Source: Bdellovibrionales bacterium
GTDB taxonomy: Bacteria; Bdellovibrionota; Bdellovibrionia; Bdellovibrionales; JAGQZY01
NCBI GenBank assembly: GCA_041736155.1
Contig: JBGSUL010000032.1
Span: forward strand, 16,554-80,553
DNA length: 64,000 nucleotides
Direction of reading: 5' to 3'
The position numbers and the translations under genes were made by a program. This document shows, one piece after another, positions 4,688 to 60,483 of the stretch. The notes under the pieces are model-generated. The model was not told the origin of the DNA and did no database searches. It saw nothing but the letters and a program-made list of their open reading frames with translations. Numbering within the stretch: the stretch's first letter is position 1; each line of letters begins with the position of its first letter.

Positions 4688-5314
4688 TTACTGATTTTTA
4701 GCTTGTTTTAAATTTTGTGGGTTAGTGAAAATGCCCTTTTCTAAAAGAATGTCCTGGGCCACGCCCGAACCTGTTTTGGCCTGATACTCCATCAAACGCA
4801 AGATATTGTCCTGCTCTGGGGCCATGGTTTTACGTCCCATCAGCATAAATACATCAACAAAGATGTTAAACTTTCGAGAAATTTCCAAATACATTTGCGA
4901 AAAGGAATCCTCGTATATCTCGCGCGAAAGCGAATGATAGGCCGTTGCTCCCATATCCATATAGTAATCCACATCGATGACCTTGCGCTGGAAAGAGTCG
5001 GCAAAAAAACCACTGATATAGAGCGCACTGTCGCCTAATTTTTTAAGCAGCTCGTACCTTTGTTTGGGCGCACTGTTTGCGGCTCGCAACATCATTTCGG
5101 CAAGCGTTTCTCGCGTTTTTTTACCAGAAGGGTCTTCTTCGTTAAAAAGATTGGTCGCCAGCAAGTAATAATTTAAAACGTCGACGAGATACGCCTCTAC
5201 TTGTGGCGCTGTTTCCACCCGCCTTTGTGTAAATGCTTCACGTAGACTTTGACGGAAATAGTCTTTGGAGTTTTCTGAGAAGGAGAGGTCTTTTTTTACA
5301 GCATCCGCGGCCAT
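4688..5314 (-). CDS. Hypothetical protein, 208 aa, soluble; first gene of the tatB-tatC-phosphoesterase string
   Basis: A long ORF with no motif I recognise. It sits 7 nt upstream of tatB on the same strand. Confidence 0.6.
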   Translation of the reverse strand: MAADAVKKDLSFSENSKDYFRQSLREAFTQRRVETAPQVEAYLVDVLNYYLLATNLFNEEDPSGKKTRETLAEMMLRAANSAPKQRYELLKKLGDSALYISGFFADSFQRKVIDVDYYMDMGATAYHSLSREIYEDSFSQMYLEISRKFNIFVDVFMLMGRKTMAPEQDNILRLMEYQAKTGSGVAQDILLEKGIFTNPQNLKQAKNQ

Positions 5315-15985: not shown

Positions 15986-17197
15986 ATGAAACTCTCCCAC
16001 AAAAAGAAGATCGCCCTCGTCCTTAGTGGGGGTGGTATTAAAGCTGCTGCCTTTCATATCGGTGTTTGCTTAGCCTTAAAAGAAAAAGGATTTAAGTTTG
16101 CCGGCGGGACCAAAGAGGAAGTTTCGGCCCGTTACGGAAGTGATGAACTCACCATAAAATTCTATGTAGGTTCCAGCGCTGGTTCGGTGATTAGCACATT
16201 TCTTGCGGCTGGTTATTCCCTCAATTCGATCATCCATGCTTTTGAACGTGGCTCCACTGAAATTTCTGATGGTTTGAAAACTGAAAAACCTTTCGATGAA
16301 GATCTCAGTCCACTCACCTATCGCAATATCTTTTCTTTGAACACCAAAGAAATGTTACAGATGTTTCCCAACCTGATTAAGAATCGCGGCTCTTCCATCG
16401 TCACCGGTGGCTTTGAAGTTTTGATCAAAAATGGCTTTAAGCTCAATGGACTCTTCTCGACTAAAGGCTTGGGAAAGTATATTCGCGATGAAGTTTGGAA
16501 AAGTGATTCTTTTGCGGATTTGGGTGTGGACCTCTACATTGTGGCCACACAACTCAATCAAAGTAGAAAAGTTATCTTTTGTGCAAAAGATGAAATGTCC
16601 AAGGATCAATCGGTTCTTTATGCCAACTACGCCAGTGTCAGCGATGCGGTTGCCGCTTCTGCAGCTTTACCGCCCGCCTTTTCTCCCTACGCCATTAAAA
16701 ACCGCGATGGTAATGACATTTACTTTTTTGATGGAGAAATTCGCGACACATTATCTTCTCACATCCCCGTGGATCATGGTGCAGACTTGGTCATCGCCAG
16801 TTATTCCATTCAGCCCTATAACTACAACAAAGTGATGGGAAGTCTTCATCAGTATGGAATTCCGGTGATCCTCAACCAGGCCCTTTATCAGGTTGTTCAG
16901 CAAAAAATCGAGAACGCCATTAAGGCCAGAAAATCCATCGAAACTGTCTACAAAGCGGTGGATGGATATTTAAAACAGATAAACATCGCCGATGAACATC
17001 GGCAGAAACTTCTTGAGATCATTACAGAAAGAACAAACTACAAGCCGCAAACGGACTATATTTACATCCATCCACACCCGCAAGACTACCGAACCTTCTT
17101 TGCGGATCATTTTAGTTTGAACCCACAAATTCTCAAAGATACTGTTCAAGCTGGATTTAGGTCAGCCCTCAATGCTTTGAGAAAATGGGATATCTAA
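15986..17197 (+). CDS. Patatin-like phospholipase
   Basis: LVLSGGGIKAAAF is the oxyanion GGGxK, GSSAGS is the GxSxG nucleophile, and FDGEIRD is the DG catalytic Asp. The start is taken at MKLSHKKK, while the track ORF starts at the alternative codon at 15947. Confidence 0.85.
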   Translation: MKLSHKKKIALVLSGGGIKAAAFHIGVCLALKEKGFKFAGGTKEEVSARYGSDELTIKFYVGSSAGSVISTFLAAGYSLNSIIHAFERGSTEISDGLKTEKPFDEDLSPLTYRNIFSLNTKEMLQMFPNLIKNRGSSIVTGGFEVLIKNGFKLNGLFSTKGLGKYIRDEVWKSDSFADLGVDLYIVATQLNQSRKVIFCAKDEMSKDQSVLYANYASVSDAVAASAALPPAFSPYAIKNRDGNDIYFFDGEIRDTLSSHIPVDHGADLVIASYSIQPYNYNKVMGSLHQYGIPVILNQALYQVVQQKIENAIKARKSIETVYKAVDGYLKQINIADEHRQKLLEIITERTNYKPQTDYIYIHPHPQDYRTFFADHFSLNPQILKDTVQAGFRSALNALRKWDI

Positions 17198-17883
17198 CCC
17201 TTTCGACGTTGCCAGCTGTGTTCACCGTTTCCAAATTTTGGTTTTTTACAATAAAGCCACTCAAGGCTTTTCTTTTGTGAATCGTTGCAGCGACCCTTTT
17301 CACCACCCTGGAATGAGGAGCAGATTTTATCCTCGATGTAATCACACGGCAAAAAACGCGGCGACTTCCATTCTGTGCTCGCGAAAGCATAAAAGTTGGC
17401 CGTTCCCCAAAAAATACTATCCCACATTCCCATGGAAAGTCCCTGACTGCCTTTGACCACAATTTGGCTGTTCTTTGGAATATCCAAAGTTAAAAGATAA
17501 CCCTGCACATGCTCTGGATTGCTCATCACCGAGCATGCCGTGTTATCGTAAACGACACTCACACGATTTTTTTTTGCTAGTGGGACGATGTGTTTATCCA
17601 AGTAAGCTAGCGTCCACCAATAATCTAACCAATGCCCCACAAAACCAACTTCAATTTGATCACCTTTAGAAATATTTGGAAGGTGCGACGCTAACGACTC
17701 ATGTGGCTTTCGGTCGACCACAGTTTTGGTAGAACAGGATCGTTGCGCCATCCACATTTGGCAGCCTTCTTTAAAAAAAGCTTTTTGATTTTTCTCCCGG
17801 CCAATTTCGCAAGCGCAATGAGTCGCCGAAAATGCCTGTTTCGAAATAATTATGAAAATAAAAAAAAAGAGAAATCTCCTCAT
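17194..17883 (-). CDS. Secreted Cys-rich hypothetical protein
   Basis: MRRFLFFFIFIIISKQAFSA is a signal peptide. The mature part contains many Cys and Trp residues and no recognisable motif. The start is taken at M17 of track ORF 17194..17931. Confidence 0.55.
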   Translation of the reverse strand: MRRFLFFFIFIIISKQAFSATHCACEIGREKNQKAFFKEGCQMWMAQRSCSTKTVVDRKPHESLASHLPNISKGDQIEVGFVGHWLDYWWTLAYLDKHIVPLAKKNRVSVVYDNTACSVMSNPEHVQGYLLTLDIPKNSQIVVKGSQGLSMGMWDSIFWGTANFYAFASTEWKSPRFLPCDYIEDKICSSFQGGEKGRCNDSQKKSLEWLYCKKPKFGNGEHSWQRRKG

Positions 17884-17983
17884 GGTCCCCACCCCCGTGA
17901 ATTTATTACATCCTTGGGTGGGCGTTATCAAGATCTCAAGGTAACAGCCTGCAATACAAAAAGGGAACTGTTACCTAGAGTTC

Positions 17984-30680: not shown

Positions 30681-30891
30681 GATTTTCTCTTTTTTGTCGC
30701 GCGTAACGTTTCCAGTAGTAGGCACTGACCACCACATAGGTGATAAATAATAAACCCTCTGGAAATTGGCGTGTTCCTTTTATAAAAAGAAAAGCGGCAT
30801 GGGCAAGAACCACAGCCTGCAAAACAACCACGGTCGCTGTGATTTGAGGATATTGAAAAGCTTTTTTGATTTTTATCCACAGGTTTATCAA
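30658..30891 (-). CDS. Small two-TM membrane protein, hypothetical
   Basis: 77 aa with two hydrophobic segments. Its ATG overlaps the stop of the upstream 174-aa ORF (ATGA), and its 3' end overlaps the convergent nagZ by 23 nt. Confidence 0.5.
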   Translation of the reverse strand: MINLWIKIKKAFQYPQITATVVVLQAVVLAHAAFLFIKGTRQFPEGLLFITYVVVSAYYWKRYARQKRENPKSNHSH

Positions 30892-31412
30892 GAGGTGACT
30901 CTCTCCAAACTCAGACTTCCAAGTACAGGAACAGGAATTTCAATTTTAGAAATACGCCCTTCATTTCTATGCACAATTAATTTTTGGTCTTTTTCTCGAC
31001 GGCGAATTTCCAGAGTTTCTGAGCGGTTTTCGTGAGCTAAATCGAGTGTTATTATTTTAGGACCGATGAGCAAATTCACATTATTTTGCGTCCAGGCGTC
31101 CTCATCCAGGAGAAGAAAGAAACCAATAGGGTCTAAAACTTCTATGTTTGATTCTTTTGTATATATTTGTTCTCTCGCTACTGATTTCCCCAGCGTTCCA
31201 TTTTCGTGAGCGGGTGTATGCTCAGACCACAGTAAAAGATCGTCACGGTAGTCTGTGCTCATCGAGTAAGATTTTTTTAAAATAGGGAGCTTCACCTCGG
31301 CCTCACAAATAATTTTGTAACCTTGCTCGAGTTTTATCTTATGAAAACGAATTTCCGCAAATTGAAAGAGCCCACGATAACGAAACGTTAAGAGTGTTGT
31401 GAGCTCCTGCAT
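30888..31412 (-). CDS. Hypothetical protein, 174 aa, immediately downstream of atpC
   Basis: A long ORF 3 nt downstream of the atpC stop on the same strand. I recognise no motif. Confidence 0.55.
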   Translation of the reverse strand: MQELTTLLTFRYRGLFQFAEIRFHKIKLEQGYKIICEAEVKLPILKKSYSMSTDYRDDLLLWSEHTPAHENGTLGKSVAREQIYTKESNIEVLDPIGFFLLLDEDAWTQNNVNLLIGPKIITLDLAHENRSETLEIRRREKDQKLIVHRNEGRISKIEIPVPVLGSLSLERVTS

Positions 31413-31835: not shown

Positions 31836-34144
<2,309 letters not shown>

Positions 34145-34153
34145 TGCTCTCTC

Positions 34154-35677
34154 TTATTTTGCTGAAGGTTCAAAAATGGATTTGAACTCTTTCAATGCAT
34201 CTACGAGTTGCGTTTTCATTTCATCGCTAATTTTTTGTTCTTTAACGATCGTCTCAAACATTTTGCTGTATTTTTGTTTCATGAAAGTGAGCATTTCTTT
34301 TTCGTAGCGGCGCATATCTTTTGTTGGGTACGCATCCACATAACCGTTGGTCGCTGCAAAAATAGAAAGAACTTGATCAGTCACTTCGTAAGGCGTGTAT
34401 TGAGATTGCTTGAGAAGCTCAACCAGTCTCTCACCACGCGCTAACTGTGATTTAGACGCCGGATCAAGATCCGATGCAAACGCAGCAAAGGCTTCAAGAT
34501 CGCGATACTGAGCCAAAGAAAGTTTTAATGTTCCTGCAACTTGCTTGACTGCTTTTGTTTGCGCGGCTCCACCCACACGCGACACAGACTTACCCACAGA
34601 AATCGCCGGGCGAATCCCTTTATAGAAGAGATCGGCCTCGAGGAAGATCTGACCATCGGTAATCGAGATCACGTTTGTTGGAATGTACGCAGAAATATCA
34701 CCCGCTTGTGTTTCGATGATTGGCAAAGCTGTTAAAGAACCACCACCATCGGCTGCCGACATTTTTGCTGCGCGCTCAAGAAGGCGTGAGTGAACATAGA
34801 AAACGTCGCCAGGGAAAGCTTCGCGACCTGGAGGACGGCGAAGAAGAAGAGATAACTGACGATACGCTTGAGCTTGTTTAGTTAAATCATCATAAACGAT
34901 CAACGCGTGGCCACCATTATCGCGATAGTACTCAGCCATGGCTGTTCCCGCATAAGGTGCTAAGTATTGAAGGGGAGCAGGAGCACTTGCACCGGCAGCA
35001 ATCACTGTTGTGTACTCAAGGGCGCCAGAAGAACGAAGTTTTTCCACAACCAAAGAAATGGTCGATTGTTTTTGTCCAATGGCTACGTAGAAACATTTAA
35101 CGTTTTTACCTTTTTGATTGATGATCGTATCGATAGCAATGGCTGTCTTACCAGTCTGACGATCACCAATGATTAATTCCCGTTGACCACGTCCGATTGG
35201 AATCATGGAATCAATCGCTTTAATTCCAGTTTGTAGCGGCTCGTGAACAGGTTGTCTTTTCACGATACCTGGAGCTTTAACGTCAATCACACGATTTTCT
35301 TTAGAAACGATGGGACCCTTGCCATCAATCGGGCGGCCAAGAACATCGACAACGCGACCAAGAAGGCCGTCGCCCACAGGGACTTCGACGATGCGTTTCG
35401 TTCTCTTAACGAGATCACCTTCGCGAATCGTTCTATCTTCACCGAAAATAACGATACCGGCAGAATCTTTCTCGAGGTTCAAAACCATTCCTGTGATTTG
35501 CCCTGGGAACTCAACAAGTTCTCCAGCCATGGCAGACTCAAGACCAAATACGCGCGCAACACCATCTCCCACTGAAAGGACAGTTCCTGTCTCGCGAACT
35601 TCAAGTTTATTTGTATAACCTTTGATTTGTTCTTTTAAAATGCGGCTGATTTCATCGGCGCGAATACGTGTTTCCAT
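34154..35677 (-). CDS. atpA: F1 ATP synthase subunit alpha
   Basis: Walker A motif GDRQTGKTA. At 507 aa it has typical alpha subunit length and order. Confidence 0.98.
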
Positions 35678-36217
35678 TTAATTTGAACTCCTCTTTAATG
35701 ACTCATTAAGCTTTTGCAAATTTGATTTTAAACTGTCTTCAATAATATAACTGCCCACTCGCGCTTCGATCCCGCCCATGAGGTCGGGGGACGTTTTGTA
35801 ATCGAGTTGCACTTTAAAATTTAATTTTTTTTCTATGGCTTCTTGCAGATTCTTTTTCTCGGTGTCAGTCAGCGCGATCGCCGACACAACTTCACCTTTT
35901 TTCACGCCTTTACCACCCGAACAACTCTCTTTAAATTCTTCGACGATTTGCGAGAGAAACCCAATGCGCCCGTTTCGCGCGAGAAGTTTGATAAAGTCCA
36001 TCAAGTCCGCATCAGCTTTTCCTGCCAGCGCCGCCTCGACAGCCGCTTCTTTTTCTTGTGAAGTAAAAAGGGGAGATTTAAAGAACTGAATTGTTTCAGG
36101 ATCATTAAAGACGGGTGCCAAAGCATCTATTTCATCGACAAAACGAGTGGCTTTTCCTGATTCATTGGCGATTTCATAAAAAGCATTGGCATAAGATTGA
36201 ACAACTTGTGTACTCAT
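35678..36217 (-). CDS. atpH: F1 ATP synthase subunit delta (OSCP)
   Basis: 179 aa. The assignment rests on its position between atpF and atpA, plus a YANAFYEIA-type N-terminus. Confidence 0.88.
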   Translation of the reverse strand: MSTQVVQSYANAFYEIANESGKATRFVDEIDALAPVFNDPETIQFFKSPLFTSQEKEAAVEAALAGKADADLMDFIKLLARNGRIGFLSQIVEEFKESCSGGKGVKKGEVVSAIALTDTEKKNLQEAIEKKLNFKVQLDYKTSPDLMGGIEARVGSYIIEDSLKSNLQKLNESLKRSSN

Positions 36218-36783
36218 ACGGTTGCCCCCTCAATGCGTTTTTGAACCCGTTGATTCAATTTTTGTTTTTCAGCGGCGTCGATAGATTGGAACTGCTGTCC
36301 CGCAGCGGCCACCGATAGTTCGAGAGCTTCTTGGCGAAGTTTTTCGATCATCTTCTGTTGATCCGTTGCCATTTGTGCATCGACATCTTTAGAAATCTTC
36401 ACCGCTTGCATTTTTGATTTTTCAATTTCACTCAGATATAATTTTTCGGCCTCTACCTTGGCCTCTTTAAGGCTTTGTTCGCTAGTTGTTTGCAGCTGTT
36501 GTGAGCGACGAAGGAGATCCGCTTTTTTATTTTCCAATTCCAAGCGCGCTTTTTTGGTTTCTTCCGCCAAACGATGGAACTCCGTCAGACGGGCATCAAA
36601 AACGGCTTTGACTTTATCTTTTCCAAACCAGTAAAGAATGCCGATAAAAATGGTGACATTGATTGCTTGATACCAAACAACCGTAGGGACTCCCGCATCA
36701 TGGCCGCCGCCATGACCACCAGAACTTGCTGACGCCAATTCTATAGACAAATCAGTGAATAAAAGAAGAGCGGTTTCTATCAT
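36214..36783 (-). CDS. atpF: Fo ATP synthase subunit b
   Basis: It has a single N-terminal TM segment followed by a long charged coiled coil. It overlaps both neighbouring genes by 4 nt. Confidence 0.85.
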   Translation of the reverse strand: MIETALLLFTDLSIELASASSGGHGGGHDAGVPTVVWYQAINVTIFIGILYWFGKDKVKAVFDARLTEFHRLAEETKKARLELENKKADLLRRSQQLQTTSEQSLKEAKVEAEKLYLSEIEKSKMQAVKISKDVDAQMATDQQKMIEKLRQEALELSVAAAGQQFQSIDAAEKQKLNQRVQKRIEGATV

Positions 36784-37232
36784 GGTTCTAGCAACCTTTG
36801 TTGAATGGCCTGGCCCAGCTCCGGGACCAAAGTCTTAAGCTGATCTTTTGCGCCGAGGTAGGCGCCCTCAATATCTTTTTTGCCCAAAGCTAGTTTTTCT
36901 TGAGCACCCTTTTGGGCCTCTGAAACTATGACGGCCGTTTCTTTCTGAGCCTTGGAGCGTTTTTCATCAGATGCGATTTTAATTTTTTCGTTGAGAACAC
37001 GGGCCTCTTGTGAAAACTGGCCCTCGAGTTCGTCGATCTCTTGTTGGAGTTCTTTAGCGACTCCGGAACCACCCACTGTTCTTCGGCGACGTTCTTCGTA
37101 CGCCGCAAGGTATGGCGAAAATATAAAATATTTTAAAAAAACAAAGGCCACGATGAAGATCGCAAACTGTGCAAAAACAGTTTCATTGACCCCTAGACCG
37201 GTAAGGATATTTAGAACTGCACCCATTTTCAT
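36780..37232 (-). CDS. atpF2: Fo ATP synthase subunit b' (second b-type subunit)
   Basis: It has a single TM segment (FAQFAIFIVAFVFLKYFIF) followed by a coiled coil. The start is taken at M36 of track ORF 36780..37337, because the upstream part would overlap the bactofilin gene. Confidence 0.8.
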   Translation of the reverse strand: MKMGAVLNILTGLGVNETVFAQFAIFIVAFVFLKYFIFSPYLAAYEERRRRTVGGSGVAKELQQEIDELEGQFSQEARVLNEKIKIASDEKRSKAQKETAVIVSEAQKGAQEKLALGKKDIEGAYLGAKDQLKTLVPELGQAIQQRLLEP

Positions 37233-37266
37233 CCAATTGTAAATAATGATGTTCGGGTATTGAGTA

Positions 37267-37632
37267 TTAGTTACTGGTGCGAGGGTCAAGTTTAAAGTTG
37301 GTCGAGGACGACCCGTCAAAAAGGACGCCCTCTTCAATCTTAAGATTCGGGACCGAAACGGTCCCTTTGAATTTGGCGGGGGCCAGCATGGTCACGCGTT
37401 TTTCAGCCTTCAACTGGCCAAAGAACTGGCCCTTGATTGTGGCTTCTTTCACACAGACATCTCCCTCGACCACCGCGGTCTCATCAATAATTAGGACACC
37501 TTCGGAAATGATTTCCCCTTTGAAGTGCCCACCAATTTTGAGGGCCCCCACAAAAGAAAGTTTTCCTTCAAAGTAAGTTCCTTCTTGGAGATGACCCATT
37601 ACCGGCGTTCGGGAAATTTCTGGTGTGCTCAC
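37267..37632 (-). CDS. Bactofilin family cytoskeletal protein
   Basis: 121 aa with the repetitive beta-helical pattern FEGKLSFVGALKIGGHFKGEIISEGVLIIDETAVVEGDVCVKEATIKGQFFGQL..VTM...KFKGTV, typical of DUF583/bactofilin. Its GTG start overlaps the parB stop (GTGA). Confidence 0.85.
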   Translation of the reverse strand: MSTPEISRTPVMGHLQEGTYFEGKLSFVGALKIGGHFKGEIISEGVLIIDETAVVEGDVCVKEATIKGQFFGQLKAEKRVTMLAPAKFKGTVSVPNLKIEEGVLFDGSSSTNFKLDPRTSN

Positions 37633-38648
37633 ACGGACCCTTTCATTTTATCAATAATGACCGTCAGACCTTCGTCCGAGTAAAACTGCACCATGATTTT
37701 GCCTTTTCCGTTTTCATAATCGATTTTCACTTTGGTACCAAAAACCTTTTGTAGGTCTTCGGCCATCATTTCCACCAGACGATCCGATACCGATTCCTCG
37801 GTTTCTAGGTCAACGGACGTCGGTTTTTTAAGTGTCGCCACTTCTTTTTCCACCGCACGCACGCTCAGACCGCGATCGATGATGTCACGCGCCAGTTGGC
37901 GTTGTAGTTCAAGATTTTCTAAGGATAATAAAGCCTTTGCATGGCCTGCTGTAATTTTTTGTTCACGAATTAATTCACGAACTTCACGCGAAAGGGTCAA
38001 AAGACGGAGAGCATTACTAATTGTGGCTCTCTCTTTGCCCATTTTCTCAGCTAACTCTTGATGAGTATAACTATAGTTGCTGATTAATAGATTATAGGCT
38101 TCTGCTTCTTCAATGGGGTTGAGATTTTCACGCTGAATATTTTCAATTAGCGCCCACTCGAGAACCTTTTTGTTATCAGCTTCTTTAAGAATTACAGGCA
38201 CTTCGTGAAGTCCGGCCACCTGTGCAGCTCGCCATCTTCTTTCGCCGGCGATAATTTCATACTCACCGCTGTCTAACTTACGAGCCACGATGGGTTGTAA
38301 AATTCCCTGTTCTTTAATAGATGCGGCCAATTCACGAATTTTATCAGCATCGAATTCTTTACGTGGCTGATCTTTATTCGGCGCGATTTTTTCAATACCC
38401 ACAGTCCATATTCTTTGCGTCGGCGCCACAATTTCTTGCGGAATCACTGGCGCCATCGGCTGTACTGGAGCCTGAATAATGACCGTCTTAAAATTCTCTT
38501 CTGTTGATTTTGTTTGTACAACGGACTCTACCCCGGTGGCCTCATCGACCATGCCCGTTTCGGTAATTTCATCGGTGAATAAACTTCCCAGGCCGCGACC
38601 CAAACGTTGTTTCTTTTTAAAGTCTTTATTTTTATCAGATTCCAGCAT
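37629..38648 (-). CDS. parB: Chromosome partitioning protein ParB
   Basis: The N-terminal GRGLGSLF, the GERRWRAA box, an HTH region and synteny with parA support the call. Confidence 0.96.
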   Translation of the reverse strand: MLESDKNKDFKKKQRLGRGLGSLFTDEITETGMVDEATGVESVVQTKSTEENFKTVIIQAPVQPMAPVIPQEIVAPTQRIWTVGIEKIAPNKDQPRKEFDADKIRELAASIKEQGILQPIVARKLDSGEYEIIAGERRWRAAQVAGLHEVPVILKEADNKKVLEWALIENIQRENLNPIEEAEAYNLLISNYSYTHQELAEKMGKERATISNALRLLTLSREVRELIREQKITAGHAKALLSLENLELQRQLARDIIDRGLSVRAVEKEVATLKKPTSVDLETEESVSDRLVEMMAEDLQKVFGTKVKIDYENGKGKIMVQFYSDEGLTVIIDKMKGSV

Positions 38649-39444
38649 GGGCTACTTCCTCGTTCTTAATATTCAATTCAGCTTGTGTTCTTTGATCCAA
38701 TTCAGCAGCGAGTTCAAAATATTTTTTTGCGCCCACAGACTTATCGTCATACTCGAATATTGACACGCCGTGGCTTGGAGCCTCGCTCAATCTCACATTT
38801 CGAGGGATCACCGCAGAAAATACTTTGTCTTTAAAATGGGTCTGAATCTCTTGAACCACCTGATGGCTCAAATTGTTTCTGGTATCAAACATCGTCAAAA
38901 GAATCCCTTCGATCTTTAATTGCGGATTCAACTTCTTTTTAATGATCCCCGCTGTATTCAATAGTTGGCTGAGTCCTTCGAGGGCGTAATATTCGCACTG
39001 CAAAGGAACAAGGAATGAATTCGCCGAACACAATGCGTTCACCGTTAAGAGACTCAACGAAGGGGGGCAATCTATAAGGACATAGTCAAAATCGTCTTTA
39101 AGCGTGGAAAGAGCGGTTTTTAACTTAAATTCTCGATTGGCCTCATCAACGAGCTCAATTTCAGCTCCGACAAGGTCAGAATTGGCTGGAATTATATATA
39201 AATTCTCTTTTTTTGTGGGATAGACCGCCTCTTTGGCCTCTATCTCTCCAATTAAGAAATGATATATGTTTTTTTCTTGATATTCGTGTCTTTTAACGCC
39301 GAGACCACTTGAAGCATTCCCTTGCGGATCTAAATCAATTAGAAGAACTTTTCTATTGAGATTTGCTAAAGCAGCGGCCAAATTGACAGAAGTTGTGGTT
39401 TTTCCAACTCCGCCCTTCTGATTCACTATACATATTGTTCTCAT
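38635..39444 (-). CDS. parA: Chromosome partitioning ATPase ParA (Soj)
   Basis: It has the deviant Walker A motif NQKGGVGKTT. The length is 269 aa and the SD GGAGGAG lies upstream. Confidence 0.96.
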   Translation of the reverse strand: MRTICIVNQKGGVGKTTTSVNLAAALANLNRKVLLIDLDPQGNASSGLGVKRHEYQEKNIYHFLIGEIEAKEAVYPTKKENLYIIPANSDLVGAEIELVDEANREFKLKTALSTLKDDFDYVLIDCPPSLSLLTVNALCSANSFLVPLQCEYYALEGLSQLLNTAGIIKKKLNPQLKIEGILLTMFDTRNNLSHQVVQEIQTHFKDKVFSAVIPRNVRLSEAPSHGVSIFEYDDKSVGAKKYFELAAELDQRTQAELNIKNEEVAHAGI

Positions 39445-39465
39445 CTCTCCTCCATGTTGAGAATT

Positions 39466-39624
39466 GGTCTGTTCTTCACTTGCAAAGCCTCTTTTAAGAG
39501 AAATTTTTGCGCTGACTCCGCGTTGCTCGTCGTCTCGTTAGCGCTTTGCTAGCGTTTCCTCCTCGCGCCTCGATTCAACCCAAAACTTTCTCTTAAAAGA
39601 GGCTTTGCAAGTGAAGAACAGACC
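39466..39624. repeat. Perfect 38-bp inverted repeat with 83-nt spacer (159-bp element; MITE-like or giant hairpin)
   Basis: The left arm 39466-39503 (GGTCTGTTCTTCACTTGCAAAGCCTCTTTTAAGAGAAA) is the exact reverse complement of 39587-39624. I checked it base by base. The left arm starts 22 nt upstream of the parA ATG. Confidence 0.9.
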
Positions 39625-39667
39625 TAGGTAATCTCTTTTTTCTAAATATTTCAACTGATAATGCCGA

Positions 39668-39683
39668 TGTTCCACGTGGAACA
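39668..39683. promoter_or_regulatory. parS centromere site 1 (perfect palindrome)
   Basis: TGTTCCACGTGGAACA. The consensus parS is TGTTNCACGTGAAACA. The flanking A and T extend the palindrome to 18 bp. Its last base is the A of the ATG of the 39683 ORF. Confidence 0.85.
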
Positions 39684-57114: not shown

Positions 57115-57500
57115 TAGAAGTCCCACTCAAAGGCAGCATAAAGAAACTTTTGGCCGCCATGGGGCTCGCTTTCCTCGTTTTGGCCCTGCATTTAGTTGTT
57201 TTTGGTGAATACTGCGACGCAACAAGCGTTTTAGTGGGTGCTGTTTTCCTCGCTACGAACCTTTTTTTTTACGCAATAGTTTCTGCCGCGATTCTGGTCA
57301 AAAAAAATATTGCCTGGGTGGGACCTGTGATTGTAATAAAGTACCTGTTTTTAATAGTTTCAGTGTATTTGGTCTGGGCCTACTTTCACAGCCTATGGGT
57401 TGTGACAGGGATGTTTGCAGAACTCCTCTTGGTCATCGTTTTTTATTTGATGATTCAAAAGTGGCAATTGAGAAGGGACAAAATAAATGGCGCATTTTAA
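57072..57500 (+). CDS. atpI: AtpI-like membrane protein of the Fo operon
   Basis: About 4 TM segments. The call rests on its position before atpB. The real start is probably the TTG at 57111, which overlaps the upstream TGA (TTGA), or the ATG at 57159. Confidence 0.6.
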   Translation: MVLAPHENQKAYALIEVPLKGSIKKLLAAMGLAFLVLALHLVVFGEYCDATSVLVGAVFLATNLFFYAIVSAAILVKKNIAWVGPVIVIKYLFLIVSVYLVWAYFHSLWVVTGMFAELLLVIVFYLMIQKWQLRRDKINGAF

Positions 57501-58176
57501 TTGGCTTCAGTATTTAAGCGCGACGGATCACCACTACACTCACGTGCTGACAGCAGCAACGATTACCGGTTTTATTTTGTTACTTGGTGTTGTGGCACGC
57601 GTACAGCTGGGTTCGGGAGAAGTTGCTGTTGTACCTGCAGGACGTTTTTCTATTCGCGGCTTTTTTGAAATGATCACGGAAGGAACTTACGGCGTTGCTC
57701 AACAAGTCATTGGTGATGATGGCGCACGCTATGTTCCTTTGGCCGCATCGATATTCACTTTTGTATTGATTAACAATTTAGTGGGTATGCTGCCAGGAAT
57801 GACACCCGCAACAGACAATCTTAATACGTCATTTGCCATTGGTGTTTTTTCTTTTATTTACTACAACTACATTGGTTTAAAGTACGATGGTTATAAATAT
57901 ATTTTGCACTTTGCTGGTCCTATATGGTGGCTGGCATGGTTGATTTTACCCATTGAGCTTATCTCGCATGCATTTCGTCCACTGACGTTGGGACTTCGTC
58001 TTGCTGGAAACATCACGGCGGATCATACCGTTGTCGGAGTTTTCCACGAACTTTTCCCGATTGGTCTACCCGTTCCTTTTTATGCAATGGGGCTTATTGT
58101 TAGTTTAATTCAAGCATTTGTATTCGCCTTATTGACTCTCGTATACGTTATGTTAGCTAAGGCGCATGATCATTAA
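57487..58176 (+). CDS. atpB: Fo ATP synthase subunit a
   Basis: RPLTLGLRLAGNITADH contains the essential Arg motif. 229 aa and polytopic. Confidence 0.95.
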   Translation: MAHFNWLQYLSATDHHYTHVLTAATITGFILLLGVVARVQLGSGEVAVVPAGRFSIRGFFEMITEGTYGVAQQVIGDDGARYVPLAASIFTFVLINNLVGMLPGMTPATDNLNTSFAIGVFSFIYYNYIGLKYDGYKYILHFAGPIWWLAWLILPIELISHAFRPLTLGLRLAGNITADHTVVGVFHELFPIGLPVPFYAMGLIVSLIQAFVFALLTLVYVMLAKAHDH

Positions 58177-58591: not shown

Positions 58592-58643
58592 GAGAGTGAA
58601 AGGCGATCGTCCCAGACCATCGTCTTAGCACTCTCTTTATCTT
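58592..58643 (+). terminator. Rho-independent terminator after atpE
   Basis: An extended imperfect stem forms from GAGAGTG-A-AAGGCGAT...ATCGTCTT-AG-CACTCTC. It is followed by TTTATCTT. Confidence 0.6.
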
Positions 58644-58719
58644 GTCTCACCCTAAGACAAATTGTGATTTAAAAAGAGACGCCACTAAGGTTTTTACCTG
58701 TGACTCCGATAAGATACCT

Positions 58720-60483
58720 ATGAGTCAGGCAAAAACTTACACGTTGATTTTTCTCTACGACAAGATGGCTTTATCACTTCCTGTGGCGCAAACGCTAAAG
58801 GAAAAAAATATAGAAGTTCATGTGGCGCAAAATGCTGGTGAACTCATCCAACTTATTGCTTCTAAAAATGTCGACATGGTTGGTTTGAGCGCGAATCATG
58901 CGAGCTCAAGAAGTCTTATCCAAGTTTTACGAGAAAAAACGCACGTCAAGATTCTCGCTTTTGGCGAAGATAAAATGCCATCCACCGCTCAGCGGATTGA
59001 TAAAATGGATGCCGATTTTAAAATTCTTGGTGTGGCCACAGCTTATAACATTTGGATGAAAATCGCTCCTTCGGTTAAAGCGAAGATGAAGGAACATGAA
59101 AATAACGGGAACGTGCTTTATAGTGGTGGTTCCAGTACACAACAAAAAAGTCACCAAGCCATAATTGTTAAGAATAGCAAAGGGGCTGCAGAAAAAGAAA
59201 AAGCCGATAGTGGCGCTAACATTATTTCTTCAGGGAAAAAGAAAAAAGATAAAAATAAACGCAAGAATGCAGAGCCAGCGATGGATGACACGTTTGAGCA
59301 AGGGGATTCGCCAGCTCAAGGAAACGATGTCATGTTCTTTAAAAAAGACGCCCCAGTATCGAAAGAATCAAAGAGAAAAGATAAATCCGATGGTCTCAGT
59401 AAAAAAAGTTCTTTAGGAAAAAATAATAAGAAAACACAAAAAGATATCGACGCTGAATTTGATTCCATGGAAAGCATGGTCAGTCCCAATCTCAGCATGA
59501 AAAAAGCCCCAACAAATGATGATGTGGAAGTAGATATAGAAAGTGCACAAGCGAATACGGGTGGTGGCAAGATGGAACAAGAAGTTCCCGATGAGCTCGA
59601 TGGCTCAATCATACAAGTTGGATTAGATAAAAACCCAGATGCTGGAATCGGTAGCGTAGATAATCTAGGTGCTGAGAGCAAAGTGGGTAAACTTCTAAAA
59701 TTTGATAAGAAAAATAAGAAAAAATTAAAGGGCAAAGCCAATAAAGAAAAAGAATCTGAAGAAGAAGTGACGGCTCAAGCAGCGGACGAGGTTGCAGAAG
59801 AGATTCCCCAGGAGCCTCTCGAAAATATCATTCAGAAAGCGGCGCTGAGTGCTTATGTTAGCGTCGAACCAGGAAAAGAAAATTTTGGATCCATTAACAA
59901 GATGACAGTGATCCCTGTCGATAGAGATGTGGACAGAGGGTTTATCATCTTCTGTACGAATGACAATCAGTTCCTATCGACGATTGCTGCATCCATGGAT
60001 ACTTTTAAAAATTCTTTGCAAGAAACCCTCGCTGAGCAAGGCATGGTTGTCGTTGGTGAGAGCTACAATATTGAAACTGAAGAAGTAGAGATACTGAATT
60101 GGGTTTTAGAAAAAAGCCAGTTTCATTACATGTTTGAAGACGCAAAGTCGCAAAAACAAATCATGATCTGTTTTTTGCCGAAGGAAAATATTTATCCAGA
60201 CACGAATAAATCGACAGAACTAAATATGCTCAAAGTCGAGCTGGATGTAATTCCTCCAGCGACACCTCTTAATTTTAATGTCTTTATTTATTTAGCGCGC
60301 AACAACCGTGTGGTTCCCTATATTCGTCGTGGTGGAAAATTTACCGACGAACAAATGGCAAGATTGGGAGATCACGGTGTAGATTCGGTCTATATAAACG
60401 AAGAAGATCGTAAAGCGCTTTACTCATTTTTTATTTCTCAAACCATTGGACAAGACCTTCGTCCAATTAAAAAAGCCGCTTAA
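58720..60483 (+). CDS. Hypothetical protein: N-terminal receiver-like (pseudo-receiver) fold, long K/E-rich disordered middle, conserved-looking C-terminal domain
   Basis: The start is taken at MSQAKTYTLIFLYD (M27 of the track ORF), because the upstream part overlaps the atpE terminator. The N-terminus shows an alternating beta/alpha pattern (LIFLYD, EVHVA, VDMVGLS, ILAFGE, FKILGV) without the phospho-acceptor Asp context. The middle is rich in K, D, E and S. Confidence 0.6.
   Translation: MSQAKTYTLIFLYDKMALSLPVAQTLKEKNIEVHVAQNAGELIQLIASKNVDMVGLSANHASSRSLIQVLREKTHVKILAFGEDKMPSTAQRIDKMDADFKILGVATAYNIWMKIAPSVKAKMKEHENNGNVLYSGGSSTQQKSHQAIIVKNSKGAAEKEKADSGANIISSGKKKKDKNKRKNAEPAMDDTFEQGDSPAQGNDVMFFKKDAPVSKESKRKDKSDGLSKKSSLGKNNKKTQKDIDAEFDSMESMVSPNLSMKKAPTNDDVEVDIESAQANTGGGKMEQEVPDELDGSIIQVGLDKNPDAGIGSVDNLGAESKVGKLLKFDKKNKKKLKGKANKEKESEEEVTAQAADEVAEEIPQEPLENIIQKAALSAYVSVEPGKENFGSINKMTVIPVDRDVDRGFIIFCTNDNQFLSTIAASMDTFKNSLQETLAEQGMVVVGESYNIETEEVEILNWVLEKSQFHYMFEDAKSQKQIMICFLPKENIYPDTNKSTELNMLKVELDVIPPATPLNFNVFIYLARNNRVVPYIRRGGKFTDEQMARLGDHGVDSVYINEEDRKALYSFFISQTIGQDLRPIKKAA

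Follow-up and report, generated by a model that had tools for sequence, protein, structure and literature searches.

A 159-bp foldback insertion, best read as MITE-like, at the promoter/leader boundary of parA in a member of the Bdellovibrionota

The criteria by which MITEs are recognised, together with the argument from filled and empty sites, have been set out previously (Delihas 2008, 2011; PMC2229807, PMC3184786). In the case of the Correia elements (CREEs), an example of 153–157 bp lies between the promoter and mtrCDE, where it is co-transcribed and cleaved by RNase III, and for CREEs positioned 5′ of genes an influence on mRNA lifetime, via cleavage or protection, has been proposed (PMC2649163). 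The mobility of MITEs of the Nezha type has been deduced by comparing filled with empty orthologous sites (PMC3184786), and YPAL/RU-2 of Yersinia provides proof that atypical small palindromic mobile elements exist (PMC2229807). With regard to Bdellovibrio, no discussion of small mobile repeats was found in the literature searched.

The locus described here lies within a 64 kb stretch of DNA (hereafter the window, i.e. the whole stretch that was analysed). Between parS and the start of parA it harbours a long inverted repeat, for which the initial annotation proposed a MITE or other non-autonomous mobile element, an RNA hairpin in the parAB 5′ leader, or a cruciform-forming DNA element; these readings are not mutually exclusive. 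Comparison with related loci indicates that the element is best read as a non-autonomous, foldback-type, MITE-like insertion of foreign DNA at the boundary of the parA promoter and leader. The coordinates of all features are collected in Table 1.

Table 1. Features at and around the 159-bp element, in window coordinates
Feature	Position	Strand	Basis and remarks
parB, 339 aa	37629..38648	-	Overlaps the parA stop codon; same operon
parA, 269 aa, intact	38635..39444	-	ORF and homologs; Pfam ParA/CbiA/AAA_31 families on homologs
Native stretch from element to ATG, 21 nt	39445..39465	-	AATTCTCAACAT-GGAGGAG-AG; sequence read directly
Shine–Dalgarno GGAGGAG	39447-39453	-	12 nt from the element
Inserted element, foldback, MITE-like	39466..39624	.	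159 bp; absent at the orthologous site of relatives; stable fold
Terminal inverted repeat, parA-proximal arm	39466..39503	.	38/38 reverse complement of 39587-39624
GC-richer interior, 83 nt	39504..39586	.	Outer 15 nt on each side pair imperfectly
Terminal inverted repeat, parS-proximal arm	39587..39624	.	Perfect, 38 nt
Putative -10 (GATTAC / TTACCT / TACCTA)	39625..39633	-	Abuts the element; candidates only, none with strong consensus
-35-like hexamer TTGAAA, presumed parA promoter	39649..39654	-	Invariant in seven aligned lineages
parS-1, perfect TGTTCCACGTGGAACA	39668..39683	.	Overlaps the divergent small ORF at its start codon; kept in relatives
Divergent small ORF, 175 aa	39683..40210	+	Lipoprotein-like N-terminus MRYFLLFFIFAVCGC; no Pfam family
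parS-2, second perfect TGTTCCACGTGGAACA	40230..40245	.	Motif match

The inverted repeat and its genomic setting

The initial annotation described two perfect 38-bp arms enclosing a GC-richer 83-nt spacer, with the parA-side arm starting at −22 relative to the parA ATG and the whole lying between parS and parA, and each part of this description holds. A scan of the window and a re-check by script both return the 38-nt arm (GGTCTGTTCTTCACTTGCAAAGCCTCTTTTAAGAGAAA) on the forward strand at 39466–39503 and on the reverse strand at 39587–39624, with 0 mismatches in 38 positions; the terminal repeats begin with GGTCTGTTCTTCAC. The parA reading frame, on the minus strand, starts at 39444, leaving 21 nt between its ATG and the element, and 43 bp separate the other end of the element from the perfect parS at 39668–39683. 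The GC content of the spacer is 55.4 %, with a peak of 63 % in the local profile, whereas the arms have ~39.5 % (a derived value), the element as a whole 47.8 % and the window 43.8 %; the flanking intergenic DNA is ~33 % GC, compared to 55 % in the core. A perfect stem of this length had been judged unlikely to arise by chance, and the arithmetic bears this out, as only ~3e-16 perfect 38-bp inverted pairs within 400 nt are expected in a random 64 kb (~64000 x 400 x 4^-38). The arm has 0 matches elsewhere in the window at ≤3 mismatches, and none of 100 shuffles contained any match. A search with seed 12 and a distance limit of 400 nt returned no other inverted repeat of 20 nt or longer from the window.

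Beyond the perfect arms, a repeat search extends the complementarity to 53 nt on each side (39466–39518 and 39572–39624; 92 % complementary, with 53 nt between), 11 of the 15 positions in the interior flanks (39504–39518 and 39572–39586) being paired. All 4 mismatches amongst the 53 pairs reside in the inner 15, with 0 in the outer 38, a distribution with a probability of C(15,4)/C(53,4) = 0.0047 were they to fall at random. This confinement suggests that the perfect 38 bp form a distinct unit, rather than the intact remnant of a uniformly decaying palindrome. The apex, comprising the central 53 nt (39519–39571), is weakly paired and contains GAGGAGGAAAC in the parA sense. The RNA folding proposed as a check predicts one rod-like hairpin for the 159 nt, at −91.6 kcal/mol (z −11.9; 0 of 200 shuffles equally stable), and the corresponding single-stranded DNA is predicted to fold at −53.4 kcal/mol (z −12.8). 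All reading frames of the element are interrupted, by one stop or two, and in-frame starts are lacking; the 159 bp encode nothing.

A motif GCTTTGC(A/T)AG, which includes the palindrome TTGCAA, occurs in the core (39543–39552), in one arm (39602–39611) and as its complement in the other arm (39479–39488). This triple occurrence could reflect a protein-binding site or be the trace of an internal duplication.

Both parA and parB are intact despite the insertion. The product of parA has ParA-family homologs at E 1e-150, the closest ParA proteins being 87–89 % identical, and the named best matches belong to MAGs of the Bdellovibrionales or Pseudobdellovibrionaceae, which identifies the host as a member of the Bdellovibrionota. 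The parB orthologs of relatives carry ParB_N and HTH_ParB. Beyond parB lie a bactofilin gene and then the atpF-H-A-G-D cluster, and upstream on the parA strand are rsmG, mnmG, mnmE, an R3H-domain gene and yidC, with dnaA-dnaN-recF-gyrB-gyrA following from 47 kb of the window. The parAB locus is thus part of the origin-proximal core genome of this organism. That no transposase is nearby, as originally observed, agrees with the gene content: the 30 larger ORFs scanned in the window are housekeeping genes or have no Pfam family, with no transposase or integrase amongst them, and the neighbour genes in relatives are GidA, GidB, ParA, ParB, bactofilin and ATP synthase.

The two parS sites bracket the divergent small ORF, and this arrangement of parS and small ORF is kept in all relatives examined. 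The position of the ORF is likewise conserved, genes of 141–188 aa being called on the opposite strand. Deviations from the otherwise invariant parS sequence are seen in L011 (GTGTTCCACGTAGAACA, 2355–2371) and L014 (GGTTCCACGTGGAACA, 1492–1508). Elsewhere in the window, an atpB-like gene for the ATP-synthase A chain (57487–58176) is located ~20 kb from atpF-H-A-G-D (31836–37337), across the dnaA region, such that the genes for ATP synthase lie in two separate parts of the origin-proximal region. The interval between yidC and dnaA (46291–47147) measures ~850 bp, and is where rnpA/rpmH, and possibly oriC, are expected. Four ORFs (4688–5314, 17194–17931, 30888–31412 and 58642–60483; 208, 245, 174 and 613 aa, respectively) have no Pfam family at E ≤1e-5.

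Filled and empty sites amongst relatives

The parA loci of the closest ParA relatives were taken from public assemblies and compared in two alignments, with two further loci (L013 and L014) read directly. A common gene order, mnmG-rsmG-small ORF-parS-parA-parB-bactofilin-atp, is found in the relatives, and parS, a block CATCGGCAwwAT and the −35-like TTGAAA are conserved in all lineages. The element is absent at the orthologous site of L001–L004, L005, L006, L009, L010, L011, L013 and L014, which represent eight distinct lineages. Comparison with L005 and L001 fixes the boundaries of the insertion. The junction in L005 reads ...GAGAGTACCT-TATAC-TTCTCAACATGGAGGAGAGATG, and that of the window ...GAGATTACCT-A[159 bp]AA-TTCTCAACATGGAGGAGAGATG, the identical TTCTCAACATGGAGGAGAGATG lying within the native stretch ahead of the ATG in L005; the flanks in the window track L005 exactly, apart from a 159-bp block bounded by the repeat ends. 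As the flanks of the relatives join directly where the window carries the element, it is, on these alignments, shown to be a discrete derived insertion rather than native leader, with boundaries that coincide with the repeat termini.

The small ORF and parA are ~80 bp apart in most relatives and up to ~145 bp apart in L009, L011 and L014, compared to 238 bp in the window. The parA leader of the window is ~185 nt long, against ~20–25 nt in most lineages and 60–85 nt in L014 and L011. The native leaders of relatives have no structure beyond that of shuffled sequences (z −1.0 to +1.45), whereas the parA leader of the window folds with z −10.9; this difference indicates that the structure was acquired, and is not a conserved regulatory feature. 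The relatives are distant (parA nucleotide identity of 72–76 %, with 39–51 % at third codon positions), and their empty sites therefore show the derived state but date the insertion only loosely. Neutral DNA of the age of this split could not have kept 38/38 pairing, which implies that the insertion is much younger or that the duplex has been maintained.

A target-site duplication of at least 2 bp is not present, the flanks in parA orientation being ...TACCTA before the element and AATTCTC... after it. The immediate neighbours (TA and AA, respectively) allow at most a 1-bp 'A', which is no better than chance, and TA is found at one end only.

Several candidate sources within the native loci were considered and rejected. 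The core is not an ancestral leader segment, despite MAFFT placing the extra 68 nt of L011 there, as the local score of 12 compares to shuffle means of 10.9–14.5. For derivation of the arm from an L009-type native leader, or from half of a parS site (TGTTC..CAC), the similarity does not exceed chance (p 0.07–0.09, uncorrected). ParA homologs with long annotated N-terminal extensions (P0018 and P0010) were examined as potential carriers; L013 proved empty, and the leader of L014 is unrelated to the element. The fetched loci of the relatives contain neither other long hairpin elements nor, by sensitive local search, sequences related to the element. On these comparisons the element is shown to be unrelated to the native leaders of relatives. 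With respect to those leaders themselves, L011 (2404–2475) and L014 (1534–1625) share a homologous longer version with a stem of 5–6 bp just 5′ of the Shine–Dalgarno. The stem reads TGGACC..GGTCCA in one and TGGACT..AGTCCA in the other, with one apparently compensatory pair, an anecdotal observation given that it concerns two sequences whose folds are no better than shuffles.

Searches for further copies were extended beyond the locus. Within the window there are no copies or diverged fragments (arm at ≤3 mismatches; blastn-short with word size 7; nhmmer), the weak nhmmer matches to the core at 46951–47088 (E 0.89 and 47) being non-significant noise; at typical MITE densities, the copy count of 1 in a stretch as short as 64 kb says little about the number per genome. 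The terminal 22-mer of the arm had 0 matches in reference genomes totalling 596 Gb, amongst which the source genome is not included (a ParA protein identical to that of the window is likewise not on record), and a pattern of the 11-nt termini separated by N{120,150} likewise gave 0 matches in the genome collection. The terminal 20-mer returned 0 matches in JGI metagenomes. A match for the inner-arm 21-mer in metagenome contig L012 sits inside an argB-like CDS, with no inverted partner and no extension, and is ascribed to chance, as are 18-mer matches in two near-identical phage contigs from the viral collection, where similarity ends at the seed; three more seeds from the core and inner arm had 0 matches in viral contigs. 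Using blastn at word size 11, plasmids showed no similarity, and phages only fragments of ≤28 nt at E ~2. These large scans need exact seeds of 18–22 nt and would miss diverged family members. Since copies might have been miscalled as spurious ORFs or as N-terminal extensions of ParA, stop-free six-frame peptides of the element were also compared to 5.8 billion protein clusters, with nothing at E ≤10. No gathering-level match to Rfam 15 is present in the window; the plant miRNA precursor model MIR2619 scored 36 bits against a threshold of 113, reflecting generic long-hairpin similarity. The element is therefore an orphan, without known relatives in the collections searched.

A putative hairpin on the parAB mRNA and rival explanations

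The element adjoins the conserved promoter block on one side and stops 12 nt short of the Shine–Dalgarno on the other, a position that most probably places it in the 5′ leader of parA. In L009, L010 and L006 the TTGAAA hexamer is followed, after a 16-nt spacer, by TAGCAT (9/12 overall). Inside the element nothing exceeds 7/12 and a promoter scan finds no promoter. A hybrid outward promoter, with a −35 in the arm (TTGCAA/TTTGCA) and a −10 in the flank (AATTCT), also reaches 7/12, but has a spacer of 14–15 nt and would start within the Shine–Dalgarno, and is considered unlikely. As only 21 nt, including the Shine–Dalgarno, precede the ATG and no promoter-like sequence resides in the element, parAB is most likely transcribed through it from the TTGAAA promoter. 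An intrinsic terminator is not apparent, the scan flagging only the parS palindrome; the hairpin is followed by AAUUCUCAAC in the parA sense, and in the opposite sense the U-run begins at least 9 nt past the stem. The assignment of the −10 in the window is weak, and it is for this reason that we infer, rather than observe, the hairpin in the parAB mRNA. The best −10-like sequence of L005, TATACT (5/6; 2975–2990), sits exactly at the position interrupted in the window (the 39625/39465 junction), such that the insertion may have split or displaced the native parA −10.

Were parAB transcribed from the conserved TTGAAA promoter, transcription would start at the edge of the element or just a few nucleotides into it, and the extreme 5′ end of the mRNA would form an almost perfect rod hairpin of ~75 bp with its base 12 nt upstream of the Shine–Dalgarno. 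The usual 30S footprint ends just short of −22. With the hairpin base at −22, just outside that footprint, translation initiation should be unaffected. RNase III needs ~20 bp, and a 38-bp perfect dsRNA, being far longer, is a textbook substrate; the uninterrupted duplex predicted by the RNA fold is 38 bp, compared to the class criterion of ~20 bp or more. Action of RNase III on this duplex would be predicted to alter the processing and half-life of the mRNA, by cleavage or by protection of the 5′ end, a plausible consequence of the leader position in light of the Correia precedent. Overall, ParAB levels may well change little, in which case the insertion would simply be tolerated.

With regard to how such a structure came to be there, the outer 38 bp being perfect against 4 mismatches in the inner 15 (p ~0.005) would fit constraint on a long duplex, as expected for a lineage-specific parAB-leader hairpin held under selection for dsRNA processing or stability, or as a 5′-end protector, that, whatever its origin, has ceased to be, or never was, mobile; recent insertion, however, explains perfect arms equally well. 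A selected hairpin would also suit a base just outside the ribosome-binding region that leaves the Shine–Dalgarno free, the variation of leader length by lineage, with small stems 5′ of the Shine–Dalgarno in L011 and L014, and the lack of a further copy in the collections searched. Yet no relative has a homolog, and hence there is no support from conservation or covariation, the native leaders of eight relatives work without any such structure, and regulatory hairpins rarely require 38 perfect pairs and a 159-nt rod, all of which makes this account improbable. The absence of a target-site duplication, family members or a partner IS is what one would anticipate if, without a transposase, an earlier unrelated insertion or leader expansion had gained its second arm via template switching or inverted duplication in the course of replication or repair. 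A recent event of this sort would be expected to leave a perfect arm pair, and the unrelated extra sequence at the same spot in L011 and L014 suggests that indels are tolerated, or attracted, there. Such an origin is nevertheless unlikely, because the repeat ends are the insertion boundaries, which is expected for insertion as a unit and a coincidence for secondary duplication, because arm and core are unlike native leader DNA, and because partial pairing runs inward past the 38 bp, as in foldback elements.

An orphan sequence with no match in any collection might also be suspected of being an assembly or sequencing artefact, for example a chimeric or hairpin-adapter-derived insert, as library preparation and assembly are known to generate long perfect palindromes. 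The arms are, however, not copied from adjacent genomic sequence, unlike those of foldback or MDA chimeras, both flanks are colinear and in register with relatives, and an adapter junction would not resemble the interior, with its imperfect pairing; to our knowledge, the element sequence matches no common SMRTbell, Nextera or Illumina adapter. We hold an artefact to be very unlikely. The location between divergently oriented genes, with a perfect parS at a distance of 43 bp, the stable single-stranded DNA fold and the three copies of GCTTTGC(A/T)AG across both arms and core could suggest action at the level of DNA, in which a cruciform or protein-binding palindrome affects ParB loading or sliding, or the divergent promoters, with RNA irrelevant. 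Cruciforms with spacers of 83 or 53 nt extrude poorly, though; the case is purely positional, the arm resembles half of a parS site no more closely than chance would allow (p ~0.07) and nothing comparable exists in any relative, leaving this the least probable of the explanations considered. The preferred reading remains that of a MITE-like foldback insertion. The fuller account, in which this orphan is probably transcribed as a 5′ hairpin on the parAB mRNA, as are Correia elements in Neisseria, could equally well hold or fail.

Should the hairpin be transcribed, the mRNA for ParA and ParB would begin with a near-perfect duplex of ~75 bp, offering a natural test of how much 5′-leader dsRNA is tolerated in a core cell-cycle operon and of whether ParAB dosage is tuned by RNase III. 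Such dosage matters in predatory Bdellovibrio-like bacteria, in which several chromosomes are segregated in a non-binary cycle. The present evidence is of one insertion in one genome, with a putative function. Were it to represent a new family, especially one lacking target duplication, the known range of bacterial mobile DNA would be modestly extended.

Standing amongst known small palindromic elements

Set against the features by which MITEs are recognised, the element is small (159 bp, within a limit of ~200–400 bp), with no transposase or coding capacity and no protein homologs in any frame. Its terminal repeats are perfect over 38/38 positions and reach 53 nt at 92 %, around a core of 53–83 nt, and as RNA it is predicted to form a long, stable stem–loop. 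The window has a filled site, whereas eight distinct, albeit distant, relatives with the same gene order have an empty one. Shared terminal repeats, which would point to a MITE family or partner IS, were not found in genomes, metagenomes, viral contigs, plasmids, phages or protein clusters. The MITE suggested in the initial annotation thus stands with respect to discrete insertion, terminal repeats, non-coding core and fold, but lacks a target-site duplication of at least 2 bp, and no further copy or family is known; the proposed check for multiple copies returned none, either in the window or in collections without the source genome. The leader hairpin suggested alongside it draws support from position, stable fold and the Correia precedent, with transcription through the element presumed. 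That this is the first sighted member of an undescribed Bdellovibrionota foldback family without target-site duplication, or a domesticated derivative placing the segregation operon parAB, beside its own centromere parS, under post-transcriptional control via dsRNA and RNase III, is conceivable but doubtful.

Amongst multi-copy families, ERIC and ERIC-like sequences resemble the element in being intergenic, transcribed, imperfect palindromes (~127 bp) whose long RNA stem–loop can alter mRNA decay (PMC3184786). They are, however, multi-copy, flanked by TA and target duplications and confined to enterobacteria, and have no sequence relationship with the element. Nezha, other IS-derived cyanobacterial MITEs and MITEAba12 are similar in size (130–170 bp), terminal repeats and stable predicted structures (PMC3184786). 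These exist in many copies, with terminal and direct repeats in common with an identifiable IS (ISNpu3), whereas neither a partner IS nor direct repeats were found for the element. YPAL/RU-2 of Yersinia, at 168 bp, is likewise not AT-rich, lacks a terminal TA motif and is found beside dyad symmetries (PMC2229807), but differs in having target duplications of 3–26 bp, repeats that are internal and not terminal, and multiple copies.

With regard to proposed working, a likeness is seen to the Correia elements (CREE/NEMIS), which match the element in size (153–157 vs 159 bp), in having terminal inverted repeats around a core, in being non-coding and in displaying filled and empty sites; they often lie 5′ of genes, and their hairpin is bound or cleaved by RNase III when co-transcribed (PMC2649163). 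There is no common sequence, as neither strand of the 159 nt contains CCGGTACGG or TCAGGACAA, with which the CREE core ends, and no convincing outward promoter or IHF site of the Correia kind was seen in the element by promoter scoring or by eye. Correia repeats are 26 bp long, occur in ~120–250 copies, duplicate their target and are restricted to Neisseria, whilst the element has perfect arms of 38 bp, no other known copy and no duplication. It would therefore be like a CREE, or an element of the ERIC type, in its proposed working, and not a member of the CREE family. We classify it as lying outside every described family, yet of a kind already known, that of small, non-coding palindromic insertions.
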